UHGV virus genome: UHGV-0008471
Length of the DNA stretch: 31,257 nt
Source of the DNA: a virus
Strand: one strand, 5' to 3'
In this document: piece after piece, positions 1 to 9,671 of the stretch
How positions within the stretch are numbered: position 1 is the stretch's first letter
Layout: every line of letters starts with the position of its first letter
Notes under the pieces: generated by a model
Databases searched by the model: none
Seen by the model: the letters and a program-made list of their open reading frames with translations, nothing else
What the model was told of the DNA's origin: nothing
Translations under genes and position numbers: made by a program

Positions 1-183
1 TGAATAAAACCACGAGTTCCTGGTGTGCCTTATTCGGCCTGCTAGTTCGAATTTAATTTACGGTTTTTATGTGGTTTTAGGGATAAACACAAGGATGGTG
101 TCCCCTGCAGACATCTACTTGAAGCGGCAGGGGATTGATTGGAATGGTGTTTTTTAGATGTGAAAAAAATTTTACCCGCTATT

Positions 184-384
184 TTACCCATTGGCGCGGC
201 TTAAGAGCTTATTTTTGAATTCACAATGGTCACGATATAACCATCTTGCTCGCCCGTGGATAACTTTGGCTTTAGGCAGGTCCCCGGACTTAATCCGGTC
301 ATAGATGAAGGTTTTACCGAAGCCAGTATCGGCCATGATGAATTTCAAATCAACCAGTGAATCAGGCTGTAGTTCGTGTTGCAT
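184..384 (-). CDS. xis: Excisionase / AlpA-family small DNA-binding protein (66 aa)
   Basis: ORF-track translation has a short winged-helix-like motif (TGFGKTFIYDRIKSGDLP) typical of AlpA/Xis proteins; sits at the distal end of the leftward early operon. No integrase ORF in the 183 bp to its left. Confidence 0.6.
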   Translation of the reverse strand: MQHELQPDSLVDLKFIMADTGFGKTFIYDRIKSGDLPKAKVIHGRARWLYRDHCEFKNKLLSRANG

Positions 385-427
385 GAGTGCTATCTCCGAA
401 TAGGGAATCGAACCTGCAAATCAGGCA

Positions 428-455
428 ATAAAAAACCGCCATCAGGCGGCTTGGT
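428..455 (-). terminator. Rho-independent terminator (GC hairpin plus U-tract on minus-strand transcript)
   Basis: Minus-strand RNA reads GCCGCC-UGAU-GGCGG followed by UUUUUUAUU; lies directly after the stop of the 442..609 ORF. Confidence 0.5.
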
Positions 456-609
456 GTTCTTTCAGTTCTTCAATTCGAATATTGGTTACGTCTGCATGTG
501 CTATCTGCGCCCATAGCATCCAGTGGTCATAGCAGTAATTGATGTTCTCTGCTTCGATAACTCTGTTGAATGGTTCTCCATTCCATTCACCTGTGACTCG
601 GAAGTGCAT
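442..609 (-). CDS. Small hypothetical protein (55 aa), below the ORF-track size cutoff
   Basis: Hand translation gives MHFRVTGEWNGEPFNRVIEAENINYCYDHWMLWAQIAHADVTNIRIEELKEHQAA; ATG preceded by GGAG; bracketed by hairpin terminators on both sides. Confidence 0.5.
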   Translation of the reverse strand: MHFRVTGEWNGEPFNRVIEAENINYCYDHWMLWAQIAHADVTNIRIEELKEHQAA

Positions 610-614
610 TTATC

Positions 615-645
615 ATCTCCATAAAACAAAACTCGCCGTAGCGAG
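615..645 (-). terminator. Hairpin plus U-tract terminator, minus strand (approximate coordinates)
   Basis: Perfect stem ACTCGC-CGTA-GCGAGT in the plus sequence; the minus transcript hairpin is followed by UUUUGUUUU immediately before the SD of the 442..609 ORF. Confidence 0.45.
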
Positions 646-767
646 TTCAGATAAAAGAAATCCCCGCAAGTGCGAGGATTGTTATTGTCTTTGCTTCGTG
701 CATTTGTCGCACTTTCGGCACCATCCAGATAGGCACATCCGTCCGCAATTAACACATATAGGCCACA

Positions 768-1049
768 TCATTTTTCCTCTTTTGGTTTATGAATCTGAAT
801 GGTCATGCCGCTTTGAGTGGTGACTACAATGACAGAACCAGGCTGAAGGCTGTTAAGATTGAATGCTTCGTAAAATGAATCCAATGCCAGTGCTTTTTTA
901 TTCTTTCGGTTCCACCAACGCCATCCCTTGCTACAGGCTACACTGACAATCCACTGTCCACTCCTGTAAGCCATATAAAACCAGATGAGCAAAACCTGAA
1001 GGAATGCTATCCAGTCAATAATCGTATATTTCGCGAAGGAGTACATCAC
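768..1049 (-). CDS. Small hypothetical protein (93 aa) with one predicted transmembrane helix
   Basis: Hydrophobic stretch IIDWIAFLQVLLIWFYMAY; its start overlaps the stop of the upstream gene at 1046-1049, consistent with translational coupling. Confidence 0.4.
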   Translation of the reverse strand: MMYSFAKYTIIDWIAFLQVLLIWFYMAYRSGQWIVSVACSKGWRWWNRKNKKALALDSFYEAFNLNSLQPGSVIVVTTQSGMTIQIHKPKEEK

Positions 1050-1729
1050 TTCACCTCCTGCTGTGGTGCTGCTGCAATCATCGCGCGGTATGCAGCCTGC
1101 ATGTCGTTGTCATCATCGTCTGTGTACGGAGCCGAATCCCATGCTGCACGCATATCCGGAGTAAGCTCAACCGGCACCATCACCCAACCATCCGGAATCA
1201 CCGGAGAGTTGCCATCCAGTCTACGCAAAACAGCCTTAACAGCTTCAATACGGTCATCATCAACTTTTTCTACAATATTGGAATTTAAATACTTCGAAGC
1301 GTTGCTATGCCAATCGCTGGTTTTAGGGTCTTGTCCATCCATCAAACGCCAAGCTTCAGCGATTAACTCATAGCCAGTGACAGTGGCTTCCTGCGCATCA
1401 CCAATCAGTTGTGTGATCTCTCTTTCAAGCATGCTTAGAGGGTTAGGCATTGGTTTTTCTTCCGGTACTACTGGCGCTGGAGGGGTGGCGTATACTTCAA
1501 TAATCCCATTATCAATAGGCCATTCTCCATCCTTGAGATAGTCACTTGTGCCGTCAACTTGCTGTTCAGCAATGTGGAATGCACCAACTGGCTCTGCTTC
1601 CAGCGATGCCAGAGCAATTCGTGCCAGTTCTTCCGCTTCTTCTGCTGGCAGTACAACGTTGCTACCAGGTCCGTATGTTTCGCGCCACTGCTTGATTGTC
1701 AGCAGTCGTTCTCTGGTAATAGTGCTCAT
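1046..1729 (-). CDS. Hypothetical acidic phage protein (227 aa from ATG at 1729)
   Basis: Long ORF; internal ATG at 1729 preceded by AAGGAAAG; proline-rich linker (PPAPVVPEEKPMPNP) between two acidic domains; no family recognised. Confidence 0.55.
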   Translation of the reverse strand: MSTITRERLLTIKQWRETYGPGSNVVLPAEEAEELARIALASLEAEPVGAFHIAEQQVDGTSDYLKDGEWPIDNGIIEVYATPPAPVVPEEKPMPNPLSMLEREITQLIGDAQEATVTGYELIAEAWRLMDGQDPKTSDWHSNASKYLNSNIVEKVDDDRIEAVKAVLRRLDGNSPVIPDGWVMVPVELTPDMRAAWDSAPYTDDDDNDMQAAYRAMIAAAPQQEVK

Positions 1730-1730
1730 A

Positions 1731-1949
1731 TCAGCTTTCCTTATACGGATTAATTTTATTGTGCAGTGTGTTGAACGAGGCCCATACCACGTCGTTATAC
1801 AATTCAATAACTGGCTCAATTATTTTCCCGATTGCCCAGACAAAAATTAGCGGGGATATCGGTGTCATCAACACGATAAACAGAATGAGAAACAGGAGTT
1901 CTGTTATTCGACTTCTTCGCGGATATTCTTTTCTGAATAATGTTGGCAC
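1731..1949 (-). CDS. Small hypothetical membrane protein (72 aa, GTG start)
   Basis: GTG start preceded by AAGGAGAG; single long hydrophobic segment (LLFLILFIVLMTPISPLIFVWAIG). Confidence 0.4.
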   Translation of the reverse strand: MPTLFRKEYPRRSRITELLFLILFIVLMTPISPLIFVWAIGKIIEPVIELYNDVVWASFNTLHNKINPYKES

Positions 1950-1950
1950 A

Positions 1951-2166
1951 TTACTCTCCTTTGTTGCTCCTCAAAATTTTATGCCCTGGCGCAAAAGCAC
2001 GCGTTTTGTCGGCGCTTATTCGCCACCCATCTTTACGTGCCTCTTTTGCGCAGCCAGCCCATGACGTACCGATATACTCACCGAAGTCTGGCGACTTATA
2101 TTTGCCATCTGTACACTGGAGGCAATCACAATAGAGATGCATGGTGTAACTTGCAGCGATAGCCAT
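1951..2166 (-). CDS. Small Cys-rich hypothetical protein (71 aa from ATG at 2166)
   Basis: ATG at 2166 preceded by AAGGAGAG; Cys cluster CDCLQC...C suggests a small metal-binding fold. Confidence 0.45.
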   Translation of the reverse strand: MAIAASYTMHLYCDCLQCTDGKYKSPDFGEYIGTSWAGCAKEARKDGWRISADKTRAFAPGHKILRSNKGE

Positions 2167-2167
2167 A

Positions 2168-2785
2168 TCACTCTCCTTTGATGCGAATGCCAGTGGCACG
2201 GGAATCATTCCATCGCTTTACTTCTTCACGAATTACGTCAATGCATTCTTTCGAATCCATTAGGTAATCTTCATCAAAAAGACGTTCCTGTTCGTTTTCT
2301 ATCGCAACAATGATTGCTTCAACTAACTTTTGTGCCTGAGAACCACTTTCTAACTCTGCTATGCGCTTACTTCCATCCGCGATTACTCCCTCGTAATATT
2401 CACGCTGCTCGTTGAGTTTTGATTTTGCTGCTTCAAGCTCAACTCTCAGCTTCCCTACCGTTAGCGCAATATCCTCGTTCTCCTGGTCGCGGCGTTTGAT
2501 GTATTGCTGGTTTCTTTCCCGTTCATCCAGCAGTGCCAGCACAGTAACCGGATTGGCTGCGGAGATGAATTCAGCATTGGCTTGCTGTTCCATTTGGAAA
2601 TCTTCATCGAAACCGCTTTCAGGATGCGCTCCTTCAATTCTGCAAATGGGAAGATATCCAACAACTTCACGATGAATTAGTGCATCACCAGCATCAAATC
2701 TCTCCTCTCCATATTCGAGCGACCACACACCACACGTTGCTTTTTCTGCCGCTTCACGCAGTGCCTGATAGTCAATCTTGTTCAT
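2168..2785 (-). CDS. Ead/Ea22-like protein (205 aa)
   Basis: N-terminal ALREAAEKAT...W motif and coiled-coil middle region, as recalled for the Ead/Ea22 family of lambdoid early-accessory regions. Confidence 0.6.
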   Translation of the reverse strand: MNKIDYQALREAAEKATCGVWSLEYGEERFDAGDALIHREVVGYLPICRIEGAHPESGFDEDFQMEQQANAEFISAANPVTVLALLDERERNQQYIKRRDQENEDIALTVGKLRVELEAAKSKLNEQREYYEGVIADGSKRIAELESGSQAQKLVEAIIVAIENEQERLFDEDYLMDSKECIDVIREEVKRWNDSRATGIRIKGE

Positions 2786-2786
2786 G

Positions 2787-3086
2787 TCACATCACCCTGA
2801 AGCCGTTGCATTTACGTAAGAAATCGCAGATATAGCCCTTCATTTTTTCATGCCAATCTCGATCATTCCCATTGCACCACCCATCAGGTGGAGTCCAGTT
2901 TTCTATCAGAGCAGCCATTTTCTTTGCTTTCGCCGGAGTAGCTGTTGCGGTATCGCAGTAATGACGAGTGTCAACAAACTTATCCATGCCATCGATATCA
3001 AGTACGCAAAACCATGTGTGATTCGGAATTCCTACAGGTGGTATTTGTTGCCCACGTCGGCGTTTATCAATGAGATATACACTCAC
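2787..3086 (-). CDS. Hypothetical protein (99 aa, GTG start)
   Basis: GTG start with strong AAGGAGGT SD; start overlaps upstream stop (GTGA). Confidence 0.5.
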   Translation of the reverse strand: MSVYLIDKRRRGQQIPPVGIPNHTWFCVLDIDGMDKFVDTRHYCDTATATPAKAKKMAALIENWTPPDGWCNGNDRDWHEKMKGYICDFLRKCNGFRVM

Positions 3087-6889: not shown

Positions 6890-6916
6890 AAAAAAATCGC
6901 CCTCACACTGGAGGGC
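6890..6916 (-). terminator. Rho-independent terminator on the leftward transcript (tL-like)
   Basis: Minus RNA GCCCUC-CAGUGU-GAGGGC followed by GAUUUUUUU; between the AT-rich gene and the acidic gene. Confidence 0.65.
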
Positions 6917-6978
6917 AAAGAAGATTTCCAATAATCAGAACAAGTCGGCTCCTGTTTAGTTACGAGCGACATTGCTCC

Positions 6979-7491: not shown

Positions 7492-7553
7492 ATCTCACCT
7501 CAAATAAGTGGTTTGCTGCCAAAACAATGAACCATCCGGAAATTCCAGATAGC

Positions 7554-7781
7554 TCATAATTCACTCTTCAATACTTCCAACTTACTAATCGCCGATAGAT
7601 ATCCGCGCTGATAGGGCATCATCATTCCTTCTAGCTTGCCACTTCTTAACTCCTCCCTGAGCAATTGTATTGCTTGATCAATAACCTCTGCCTTAGCGTC
7701 CTTTATGGCTTGCTTGCGGGGCTTTGCTTTCTGCTTTGGCAGATTTCTCAAGCATGATGGAATGTATGTCTGATTCATCAC
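7554..7781 (-). CDS. Small hypothetical protein (75 aa) directly downstream of N
   Basis: Start abuts the N stop (7781/7782); basic N-terminus; sits where Ral does in lambda/P22 but has no recognisable similarity. Confidence 0.5.
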   Translation of the reverse strand: MMNQTYIPSCLRNLPKQKAKPRKQAIKDAKAEVIDQAIQLLREELRSGKLEGMMMPYQRGYLSAISKLEVLKSEL

Positions 7782-8054
7782 TTACCTCGCCGTCAGTTGT
7801 TTTGATTTCCGGTAGCCTGCCGCGTAAATGGCTACGTTTGGCAGGCAAATACTTCCACTGCATTCATCTGCCTTCTTGCAGCGAAGGCTTCCGAGTGATG
7901 CTGCTTTATCTGCTCTGACGCAACCAGAGAGCTTTAGCGCAATTTTTCGTGCCAGTCGCTGCTCTTGCATTGCCTGTTCACGTTGAGCCTGTCTGCGTGC
8001 TCTGCGGCGATTTCTGGCGTTATCGTCAGCCAGATATGTAATGACTACTGTCAT
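7782..8054 (-). CDS. N: N-like transcription antitermination protein (P22 gene 24 type, 90 aa)
   Basis: Arginine-rich motif NARNRRRARRQAQ near the N-terminus and C-terminal GYRKSKQLTAR resembling P22 gp24 as recalled; GGAGG SD; nutL-like site upstream. Confidence 0.8.
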   Translation of the reverse strand: MTVVITYLADDNARNRRRARRQAQREQAMQEQRLARKIALKLSGCVRADKAASLGSLRCKKADECSGSICLPNVAIYAAGYRKSKQLTAR

Positions 8055-8161: not shown

Positions 8162-8203
8162 TCCCGCATTTCGGCGGGACAATCCCATCAATGTTAAAGA
8201 GCC
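8162..8203 (-). promoter_or_regulatory. nutL-like site (boxA plus boxB hairpin)
   Basis: Minus strand reads GCTCTTTAACA (boxA-like), then a spacer, then hairpin UCCCGC-CGAAAU-GCGGGA; the same boxB occurs at nutR. Confidence 0.7.
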
Positions 8204-8241: not shown

Positions 8242-8340
8242 TGGCTTAAATTTAAGATCTCTTTAATTAATGGTCAAGAGTATTTTTGAAGAAAACTTAA
8301 ATTTTCTTTCGTAACTTAAGTTTGGCTTTGATTTTTAAAG
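8242..8340 (-). promoter_or_regulatory. pL promoter with OL operators
   Basis: Minus strand TTGACC (8272-8277), 17-bp spacer, TAAATT (8249-8254); overlapping dyad-symmetric operator-like sites (ATTTAAGATCTCTTTAAT, ACTTAAATTTTCTTTCG). Confidence 0.6.
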
Positions 8341-8343
8341 GAA

Positions 8344-8367
8344 ATAAAAAAAGGGGCGAATGCCCCC
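8344..8367 (-). terminator. Terminator downstream of the repressor gene
   Basis: Minus RNA GGGGC-AUUC-GCCCC followed by UUUUUUUAUUU, immediately after the repressor stop. Confidence 0.6.
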
Positions 8368-9018
8368 TTATGGAAGGTTTGCTAGTTTTGCATCGACAAC
8401 TACGCCGATGATTTTGCAGTTTCCGTTGATCTCGATCATCGGATATTGTGGGTTAAGTGGTTTTAGAAACTTCCTGCCTGCATCAATAACTAACTTCTTG
8501 AAAGTTGCCTCGTTTTCTCCTTCGAGCTTTGCAACTACCAGTTTCCCGTTACGCGGCTCTACTTCAGGATCGACGAGTATTATCATTCCTTCAGGGATAC
8601 TGAGACCGGCCGGAGCCGTCATTGAGTCTCCCTTCACGTCCAACCAAAACGAATCTTCTGAACAGTCTACGGTTGTATCGTACCAGTTATCTATTGCACG
8701 CTTATGATATGGTTCTACAGCTTCCATCCAGCATCCTGCGCTCACCCAGCTAATCAGAGGGTATGACCCTCTTGGATCATGCCTACTGTGATAGGCAATG
8801 TTTGAAAGACTTTCCTCTCCTTTCATCAGATAGTCAGGGGAACACTTCAACGCATTAGCCAGGGCGAGAAGATTCTCTCCATTTGGCTCTGTCTCAGAGC
8901 GTTCCCACTGAGATATGGCAACATTAGACACGCCGACCATCTTTCCAAGTGCGGCCTGCCTGATCTTGAGTTCTTTTCTCCGAGCGCGAATGCGCTCTCC
9001 CATCAATTGAGTTTTCAT
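8368..9018 (-). CDS. cI: CI-type repressor, P22 C2-like (HTH plus S24 LexA-like autopeptidase, 216 aa)
   Basis: N-terminal HTH (QAALGKMVGVSNVAISQWER) and C-terminal S24 peptidase domain (GDSM...K); very close to P22 C2 as recalled. Confidence 0.9.
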   Translation of the reverse strand: MKTQLMGERIRARRKELKIRQAALGKMVGVSNVAISQWERSETEPNGENLLALANALKCSPDYLMKGEESLSNIAYHSRHDPRGSYPLISWVSAGCWMEAVEPYHKRAIDNWYDTTVDCSEDSFWLDVKGDSMTAPAGLSIPEGMIILVDPEVEPRNGKLVVAKLEGENEATFKKLVIDAGRKFLKPLNPQYPMIEINGNCKIIGVVVDAKLANLP

Positions 9019-9098: not shown

Positions 9099-9284
9099 AT
9101 GTACAAGAAAGATGTTATCGACCACTTCGGAACCCAGCGTGCTGTAGCTAAAGCGTTAGGCATTAGCGACGCAGCAGTCTCTCAGTGGAAGGAAGTCATC
9201 CCAGAGAAAGACGCCTATCGACTGGAAGTCGTTACAGCTGGCGCCCTGAAGTATCAAGAAAGCGCTTACCGCAAAGCGGCATAA
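9099..9284 (+). CDS. cro: Cro repressor (61 aa)
   Basis: First rightward gene after OR; small HTH protein (GTQRAVAKALGISDAAVSQW); GGAG SD. Confidence 0.85.
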   Translation: MYKKDVIDHFGTQRAVAKALGISDAAVSQWKEVIPEKDAYRLEVVTAGALKYQESAYRKAA

Positions 9285-9290
9285 GCAAAT

Positions 9291-9335
9291 TGCTCTTTAA
9301 CAGTCATGGTCCTCATTCCCGCCGAAATGCGGGAA
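9291..9335 (+). promoter_or_regulatory. nutR-like site (boxA TGCTCTTTAACA plus boxB hairpin)
   Basis: boxA at 9291-9302; boxB hairpin TTCCCGC-CGAAAT-GCGGGAA at 9316-9335. Confidence 0.7.
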
Positions 9336-9392
9336 TACAACGCGCATAAGTTGATGCGCATAATTTCTTATTTGTTAAGGAAATACTTACAT

Positions 9393-9671
9393 ATGGAACT
9401 TACAAGTGCTCGCAAGAAAGCGAATGCAATTACAAGCAACATCCTGAATCGAATTGCTGTACGTGGTCAGCGAAAGGTTGCCGACGCGTTAGGGATTAAT
9501 GAATCGCAAATTTCGCGATGGAAAGACAGCTTCATCCCAAAAATGGGAATGCTTCTGGCTGTTCTTGAATGGGGTGTTGAAGACGAGGAGTTGGCGGAAC
9601 TGGCTAAGAAAGTAGCCAGAATGCTGACAAAAGAAAAAGCCCCGAAGAACGGCGAATTCTTCGAGGCCTGA
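9393..9671 (+). CDS. cII: CII-like transcriptional activator (P22 C1 type, 92 aa from ATG at 9393)
   Basis: [44 protein letters not shown] resembles P22 C1 as recalled; the upstream in-frame extension in the ORF track is probably not translated. Confidence 0.75.

Follow-up and report, generated by a model that had tools for sequence, protein, structure and literature searches.

The window analysed here, i.e., the whole of the 31,257-nucleotide virus genome UHGV-0008471, carries near its left end a gene of 55 codons (442..609, minus strand) that is enclosed by terminator-like hairpins and adjoins an excisionase gene, which raises the question of what this gene is and how RNA polymerase gets to it. 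We consider it likely that the cassette holds a real gene, the counterpart of orf55 of phage lambda, transcribed from a pL-like promoter under antitermination by an N-like protein; that the three flanking hairpins, here called T1, T2 and T3, are terminators, with T3 acting as a shield; and that the hairpins are points at which the cassette is swapped between phages.

The reading frame opens with ATG at 609, 7 nt after a GGAG ribosome-binding site (617..620, minus strand) read directly from the sequence; ORF and GGAG are those of the first-pass annotation of this DNA, a model's note made from the letters alone. A homology search with the 55-residue product, which that annotation had proposed as a check, returned lambda orf55 (lambdap35), with 53 of 55 residues identical and the changes D25Y and I32L, and PHROG 676, with residues 1-55 of 55 matched (E = 1.1e-38); no family was found for it in Pfam (E <= 0.1), NCBIfam or PADLOC searches. 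The HK106 record notes the likeness of its own copy to lambdap35, and RefSeq relatives annotate the equivalent of 442..609 as a hypothetical protein. In lambda (NC_001416 29118..29285c), the gene has the same ribosome-binding site, the same three hairpins with the same spacing, and the same place in the operon, being the last gene before the excisionase gene (xis) on the pL strand. The neighbours differ, however: upstream, lambda has ea8.5 where the window has a 29-residue open reading frame (ORF) and a DUF4752 gene, and downstream it has xis where the window has torI, an excisionase gene of the KplE1/HK620 type. By these matches the gene can be identified as lambda orf55, a common piece of lambda-like prophages, and, of 5426 complete E. 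coli genomes, 2175 carry at least 80% of the 266-nt cassette.

The gene and its hairpins have already been described in lambda, whereas the host element here is a P22-like prophage. What is added here is that the gene is under purifying selection, that hairpins and mosaic junctions coincide, that the stop codon recurrently sits in a hairpin loop, and that there are arguments against a published structural model of the protein. In lambda, orf55 is listed as part of the exo-xis region (PMC3824215), and a passage of PMC9239242 cites it, together with neighbouring genes, as implicated in inhibiting initiation of host replication; lambdap35 lies outside the genes covered by the lambda CRISPRi essentiality map.

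That orf55 evolves as a protein-coding gene follows from 128 loci carrying T3, which served as the sample for coding statistics and junction comparisons. They contain 53 distinct intact coding sequences of 168 nt, encoding 26 distinct proteins, with a pooled pN/pS of 0.195 and with 14/8/21 variable sites at the three codon positions. Because of this low ratio and the excess of third-position changes, orf55 is a real protein-coding gene under purifying selection, and the conservation with which the first-pass annotation had reckoned is indeed present. The overlapping ORF at 501..755, which that annotation took for a read-through artefact, is one: its frame runs for anything between 0 and 84 residues in 77 distinct contexts, reaching 84 in 2 only, it has no Pfam match, and it can be dropped from the annotation.

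Alternatively, the ORF might have no function as a protein, and what is conserved might be an RNA, such as a small one consisting of the 3' end of orf55 and T3. The last 45-48 nt of the gene survive with T3 in P22-type and Sf6/933W-type loci, with only scattered single-base differences between loci; the two truncation junctions lie 3-5 nt apart, and the segment is A/G-rich and stands ahead of a U-tailed hairpin. This explanation is nevertheless extremely improbable, given that the pN/pS and the third-position excess extend over the full ORF and that the protein family reaches down to 38-50% identity in its distant members with a conserved N-terminal motif (F.[VC]TG.WNGE.F.R[VI]IEAEDE.D..HW..WA is common to them). 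An Rfam search (E <= 1) of positions 1..3000 gave two chance-level matches on the wrong strand and no known RNA family. A small RNA from the 3' remnant was rejected as a candidate, since its conservation in P22-type loci does not clearly exceed that of the flank, and since the truncations amount to only two or three independent events.

Three hairpins on the minus strand accompany the gene. T1 (659..680; AATCCTCGC-ACTT-GCGGGGATT, 9 pairs, tail TCTTTTATCT) and T2 (629..648; GAACTCGC-TACG-GCGAGTTT, 8 pairs, tail TGTTTTATGG) lie upstream, and T3 (430..452, the hairpin itself at 452..433; AAGCCGCC-TGAT-GGCGGTTT plus a T-run, 8 pairs, tail TTTATTGCCT) lies at the end of the gene. Folded alone, T1 reaches -13.1 kcal/mol (z -5.9), T2 -11.9 kcal/mol (z -4.3) and T3 -13.0 kcal/mol (z -3.3), and T1 and T2 folded jointly reach -25.5 kcal/mol (z -5.7). 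All three show the hallmark of an intrinsic terminator, i.e., a GC-rich stem-loop followed by a U-tract on the transcribed strand, and a terminator scan of the first 3 kb returned 6 sites against 2.4 +/- 1.6 in shuffled sequences. T1 is the predicted terminator of the upstream cassette. The tail of T2 runs straight into the ribosome-binding site of orf55, with 19 nt from the T2 stem to the ATG, and the orf55 stop codon TGA (444..442) sits inside the 4-nt loop of T3, whose hairpin is followed by six T.

The first-pass annotation had a perfect hairpin with a U-tract before the gene and a second one after it. Both are found, at 648..629 and at 452..433; the outermost pair of T2 is, however, G.U, and T3 also contains one G.U pair. 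The range assigned to the feature, 428-645, holds the gene and T3 but cuts 3 nt off T2. Beyond that annotation are the third hairpin, T1 (680..659), which makes the upstream terminator a tandem pair, the identity with lambda orf55, and the published prediction of the hairpins: exactly these sequences are the predicted lambda terminators t3 (T1), t4 (T2) and t5 (T3) of Bloch et al. 2014 (PMC4195576), a paper that was the sole match in a literature text search for the T3 sequence. The stretch 442..609 can be annotated as orf55 (PHROG 676) with terminators equivalent to lambda t3/t4/t5, which is of little import beyond annotation. As far as could be established, T1-T3 are not found among the classical experimentally mapped lambda terminators. 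Equation of the hairpins with lambda tL3 was considered and rejected, since the hairpin at the tL3 position differs and lies inside orf60a (t1_lambda of PMC4195576); papers in which tL3 is named give no coordinates for it.

Across relatives, T2 is paired in 98% of cells over 38 distinct sequences, with alternation of T-A and T.G, and T1 in 93.7% of cells over 30 distinct sequences, with one pair seen as T.G, T-A or C-G; the polymorphic pairs of T1 and T2 carry one-sided changes that keep the pairing. T2 is attached to orf55 in nearly every lambda-type locus. Searches with the hairpins only also hit the T3 core at four unrelated places, which is probably chance.

How a gene behind two such hairpins could be transcribed is suggested by its operon. 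All genes from 8054 down to 184 lie on the minus strand, in a leftward operon of ~7.6 kb in which orf55 is second-to-last; the gene it adjoins, torI (184..384, minus), encodes an excisionase/recombination directionality factor of 66 residues (RefSeq "response regulator inhibitor TorI", K-12 torI, PHROG 66), so that the earlier placement next to xis holds by the RefSeq relatives. At the far end of the operon, a pL-like promoter (TTGACC-17-TAAATT, 8249..8277, minus) is located between the repressor gene (8368..9018, minus) and the gene of an N-like antitermination protein (7782..8054, minus; PHROG 271, E 4e-34). A nutL-like site (8163..8203, minus), read from the sequence, lies between this promoter and the N-like gene, and consists of GGCTCTTTAACA (8203..8192), which we take to be boxA from its resemblance to the consensus, and of a boxB-like hairpin CCCGCCGAAATGCGGG (8178..8163) with a 6-nt loop, 13 nt beyond boxA. 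With these elements found upstream, the claim that the gene occupies the distal end of a pL operon is borne out.

In lambdoid phages, N-modified polymerase passes terminators on the pL transcript, and in lambda itself N-dependent reading of the pL operon carries transcription past tL1, tL2 and tL3 as far as xis and int. The window resembles it in having a pL-like promoter, boxA/boxB, an N-like gene, and several predicted intrinsic terminators before the excisionase gene. Because orf55 lies at the distal end of an operon with such a promoter, nutL-like site and N-like gene, expression mainly under antitermination, as first proposed, would be the natural reading. In this scheme, polymerases from pL would reach orf55 past many intrinsic terminators, for which the N-like protein would have to modify them at nutL; T1 and T2 would form tandem Rho-independent terminators, at which unmodified transcripts would end with the upstream cassette; T3 would shield a pI-like promoter and torI from unmodified read-through; and excisionase would be made from pL only after induction. 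Termination at the hairpins, its override by N and the shielding role of T3 are what we infer from the sequence.

The first-pass annotation had offered an independently regulated cassette as its other possibility, and in that case orf55 and its terminators could form a moron-like cassette, with its own promoter and transcribed in the repressed prophage. Morons and the "boundary sequences" of lambdoid mosaics are said to go back to Juhala et al. in 2000, Clark et al. in 2001 (HK620) and Casjens et al. in 2004 (Sf6). There is likeness to a moron in that orf55 is a small accessory gene with a terminator downstream (T3), present or absent from phage to phage between genes that adjoin each other in relatives; it behaves as a unit that can be inserted and is enclosed by terminators, other genes have been inserted alongside it (an L0063-like gene in Kapi1, a queuine tRNA-ribosyltransferase gene in HK106), and distant relatives occupy other operon positions. 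A promoter of its own, which belongs to the classical definition of a moron, was not found: a simple consensus scan gave no sigma-70-like site on the minus strand of 1..3000. Furthermore, the 19 nt between T2 stem and ATG are filled by U-tract and ribosome-binding site, and transcription from a promoter farther upstream must read through T1 and T2. Since there is no consensus match and the T2 tail abuts the ribosome-binding site, orf55 appears to have no promoter of its own and to be transcribed from pL. The independent cassette is not supported, and its moron-like form is very improbable.

A predicted pI-type promoter region (387..428, minus), assigned by homology only, lies between T3 and torI. 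Its cII-type 13-nt site, TTGCCTGATTTGC (428..416), directly follows the T-run of T3, and has the spacing TTGC-N5-TTGC as against N6 in lambda, where the pI cII site TTGCN6TTGC begins one base past the T3 T-run. The HK620 record gives the equivalent 13 nt as the cII binding site of "promoter: phage integration" upstream of the torI homologue, and the Sf6 record has pI annotated at the equivalent place.

The proposed shield has a parallel in the K-12 KplE1/CPS-53 prophage, where torI is reportedly controlled by Rho-dependent termination, as described by Menouni et al. in 2013. Amplification of CPS-53 on inhibition of Rho is restated in a passage of PMC11551753. The excisionase gene of this prophage and its chromosomal site are those of the window, and in both the prophage would be kept in place by termination upstream of that gene. 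However, ypdJ replaces orf55 in CPS-53 (L005 4095..4311), which has no hairpin upstream of torI (z 0.33), whereas the barrier in the window is a predicted intrinsic terminator; homology between the two resumes exactly at the T-run. An intrinsic terminator just upstream of torI, with none in K-12 KplE1, would provide a simple system for comparing intrinsic with Rho-dependent control of excision.

Distant members of the orf55 family show how far this arrangement extends. In a Klebsiella prophage (L161, 74% identity), the gene ends in AAGCCGCC-CACTGA-GGCGGTTT, a hairpin of -13.9 kcal/mol (z -3.2) whose loop takes in the stop codon; a TTGCN6TTGC site, an Exc-type xis and int come next. The L158 homologue (46%) ends in GGTCGC-CTAGC-GCGGCC plus T6, with its stop TAG in the loop; that of L167 (43%), upstream of kilR, in GCCGC-CTAACAA-GCGGC plus T6, again with the stop in the loop (-14.4 kcal/mol, z -4.0); and that of L165 (50%), directly after an N gene, in a weak CTGCC-TAACT-GGCGG plus T5, with the stop in the loop. 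In L163 (73%), where a 42-aa ORF, a DUF1233 gene and int lie downstream, the stop-codon hairpin is degenerate. The homologues at 74%, 46% and 43% identity thus have different hairpins at the same place with the stop codon in the loop, and a stop-overlapping terminator whose 5' arm derives from the terminal Ala codons tends to recur across the family at any operon position. The family is not tied to an xis-proximal position, since the L165 and L166 copies directly follow an N gene and the L167 copy lies upstream of kilR. Upstream terminators are frequent in the distant relatives, although not universal; in L167 a strong leader terminator lies ~40 nt before the start of the gene, and a repeated TTGACTGTGGAA motif stands ahead of the gene as well. 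The family gene occupies 601..762 in L165/L166 and 601..768 in L167.

Several points weigh against N-antiterminated transcription through T1-T3 with T3 as a shield. Upstream terminators are absent in L161, L162, L158 and L165, and L163 has a degenerate T3 and L165 a weak one. Within no hairpin lineage is there a double compensatory substitution, the changes being one-sided. CPS-53 of K-12 has torI without orf55 or T3, so that either the shield can be dispensed with or Rho-dependent termination takes its place there. The literature found contains no transcript 3' ends or termination assays for these hairpins, the prediction of Bloch et al. being in silico, and a promoter scan with a simple consensus may overlook a weak or activator-dependent promoter.

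The recurrent position of the stop codon also bears on a further explanation, namely that T3 is a translation-sensitive attenuator: a ribosome at the orf55 stop would block the hairpin, and read-through to pI and torI would need translation of orf55 close behind the polymerase. The stop lies in the loop in the window, lambda, the Klebsiella-type relatives L161 and L162, and L158, L165 and L167, with differing hairpins whose 5' arm is the terminal Ala codons. The C-terminal tail of the protein is predicted to be disordered (pLDDT 54), so its conservation may reflect RNA rather than protein. Overlaps of stop codons with terminators are, however, common in compact phage genomes, P22 and Sf6/933W keep T3 without a translated orf55, the degenerate and weak T3 copies just named speak against such a function too, and N antitermination already accounts for read-through. 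We regard an attenuator as improbable, and give as little credence to a wider reading, in which the orf55 family would spread as gene plus terminator, with the stop in the loop and the terminal Ala codons as 5' arm, and in which T3, in this phage and in lambda, would gate read-through to the pI region and excisionase via N plus a ribosome finishing orf55 close behind the polymerase.

The first-pass annotation had also suggested a comparison of neighbouring sequence in related prophages, and this shows that homology starts and stops at the hairpins. Past the T3 T-run, at least six different downstream sequences follow, including those leading to lambda xis, torI, P22 eaC-type genes and 933W xis, and the T1 tail and T2 are common to loci whose upstream genes are of many kinds. 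Elsewhere T1 is missing or swapped for an unrelated hairpin, e.g., AACCCGC-CGAGT-GCGGGTT, with the tail GGATTTCTTTTATCT kept. From this divergence past the T-run and the exchange of T1 with retention of its tail, it follows that the hairpins coincide with mosaic junctions at which the cassette has been swapped between phages. The Sf6 record contains a "boundary sequence", bsq2, that ends in the T3 tail, and T1-T3 resemble boundary sequences in being short sequences kept at junctions of otherwise unrelated modules. The gene itself is intact in lambda, HK106 and Kapi1, and absent or truncated in P22, Sf6, 933W and K-12 CPS-53. P22 keeps the last ~45 nt of orf55 and T3, between eaG and eaC; Sf6 and 933W keep a PHROG 3680 gene, with orf55 reduced to its last ~48 nt plus T3. 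Kapi1 has an extra gene (PHROG 3680, 933W L0063-like) between T2 and orf55, and in HK106 the tRNA-ribosyltransferase gene is inserted beside orf55.

These junctions could mean that T1-T3 are mainly recombination boundary or linker sequences, or else stabilisers of mRNA 3' ends, retained because they allow cassettes to pass between lambdoid phages, with termination secondary. The breaks of homology at the hairpins, the swapped T1 with its retained tail, the survival of T3 with only the last 45-48 nt of the gene in P22 and Sf6/933W, and the end of bsq2 in the T3 tail all fit such a role. All three hairpins have, however, canonical GC stems with U-tracts, on the transcribed strand only, and distant homologues combine unrelated hairpin sequences with the same terminator geometry, which speaks for selection acting on the structure of the RNA, not on a DNA sequence in common. 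Boundary and terminator roles can moreover coexist, and we think it rather unlikely that termination is the secondary one.

The PHROG 3680 protein has 103 residues and contains Cys (Kapi1_003, L002 552..863; Sf6 gene 19; 933W L0063), and its gene shares with orf55 the T2 tail and the ribosome-binding site (GGAGATGATTATG).

As to the function of the protein, a paper in which orf55 is named (PMC8614690, Donaldson lab 2021) models it as an alpha/beta protein of small size that resembles T7 Gp2. An AlphaFold2 model built from a 19-sequence alignment has a beta-beta-alpha-beta fold (pLDDT 90.6), with a low-confidence C-terminal tail (pLDDT 54 in the last block); the protein is small and acidic, and its conserved surface is the acidic N-terminal half. 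The predicted small acidic beta-beta-alpha-beta fold resembles that of Gp2, an inhibitor of host RNA polymerase. In a Foldseek search of the PDB, Gp2 came top but weak (4lk0_M, E 0.035; 4llg, TM 0.62-0.69; TM for Gp2 overall 0.56-0.69), ahead of YkzG, the epsilon subunit of RNA polymerase, and p56, an inhibitor of uracil-DNA glycosylase, and searches of viral models gave weak matches throughout, a few of them Gp2-like. At the sequence level, the family profile returned no Gp2 and noise only against all PDB sequences, and a Pfam search (E <= 0.1) gave no link of Orf55 to Gp2. The published alignment places R45 of Orf55 with the Gp2 arginine that is essential for binding the beta' jaw (PMC8614690); this residue is unconserved, being Q in close relatives and E, V, H, N or D in distant ones. 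Since the Foldseek matches are weak, a sequence link is absent and R45 is variable, a Gp2-like mechanism is a weak lead, and the published model appears weakly supported. For researchers who work on the exo-xis region, it may be of use that the residue behind the Gp2-like RNA polymerase model is not conserved, as may the coincidence of hairpins with recombination junctions and the recurrence of a stop-overlapping terminator in distant members located elsewhere in the pL operon.

The family is narrow, with 98 clusters at 90% identity, mainly in Escherichia and some in Klebsiella, and with 53 matches in 1.84 billion representatives. A scan of genome contigs found mainly lambda DNA in unrelated assemblies and one genuine distant homologue. 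Copies at 96% identity occur on contigs, several of ~48.4-48.5 kb, of Shewanella, Pseudomonas, Chromatium, Oceanobacillus, Kitasatospora, Bradyrhizobium and other assemblies (L140, L142, L144, L148, L149, L152, L153, L155 and others), and are most likely contaminating lambda control DNA.

The best matches of the whole window are the P22-like phages phiv205-1, CUS-3, Kapi1 and HK620, and the window is a prophage of the P22-like kind (Lederbergvirus, HK620/Sf6/Kapi1-type) located at the dsdC/argW site. Its positions 1-1100 match stretches of E. coli chromosomes beside dsdC, and phage matches begin at ~95, where the Kapi1 record puts the attachment core; 1-94 is therefore host chromosome. The attachment core lies at ~94-110, with the excisionase gene as the last prophage gene at the window start, so that the integrase gene must lie at the opposite end of the prophage, an order shared with KplE1, HK620 and Sf6. 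Beyond the repressor gene, a cro-like gene (9099..9284) and a CII-like gene (9306..9671) lie on the plus strand. Further strong terminator-like hairpins on the minus strand are one at 8350..8369, just past the repressor gene, another at 6897..6918, at the start of a sieB-like ORF, and one at 7527..7557, after the ORF that follows the N-like gene, i.e., at a tL1-like position.

The upstream neighbours of the cassette are the DUF4752 gene (768..1049, minus; PF15944, 2.5e-36; RefSeq) and, filling the gap between it and T1, the 29-residue ORF MMWPICVNCGRMCLSGWCRKCDKCTKQRQ (682..771, minus). The latter, absent from the first-pass annotation and without a PHROG match, reaches over the stop codon of the DUF4752 gene at one end, stops 1 nt short of T1 at the other, and is annotated as gp30 in HK106. 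Its product has six Cys, including three CxxC pairs, and may be a zinc-ribbon-like micro-protein.

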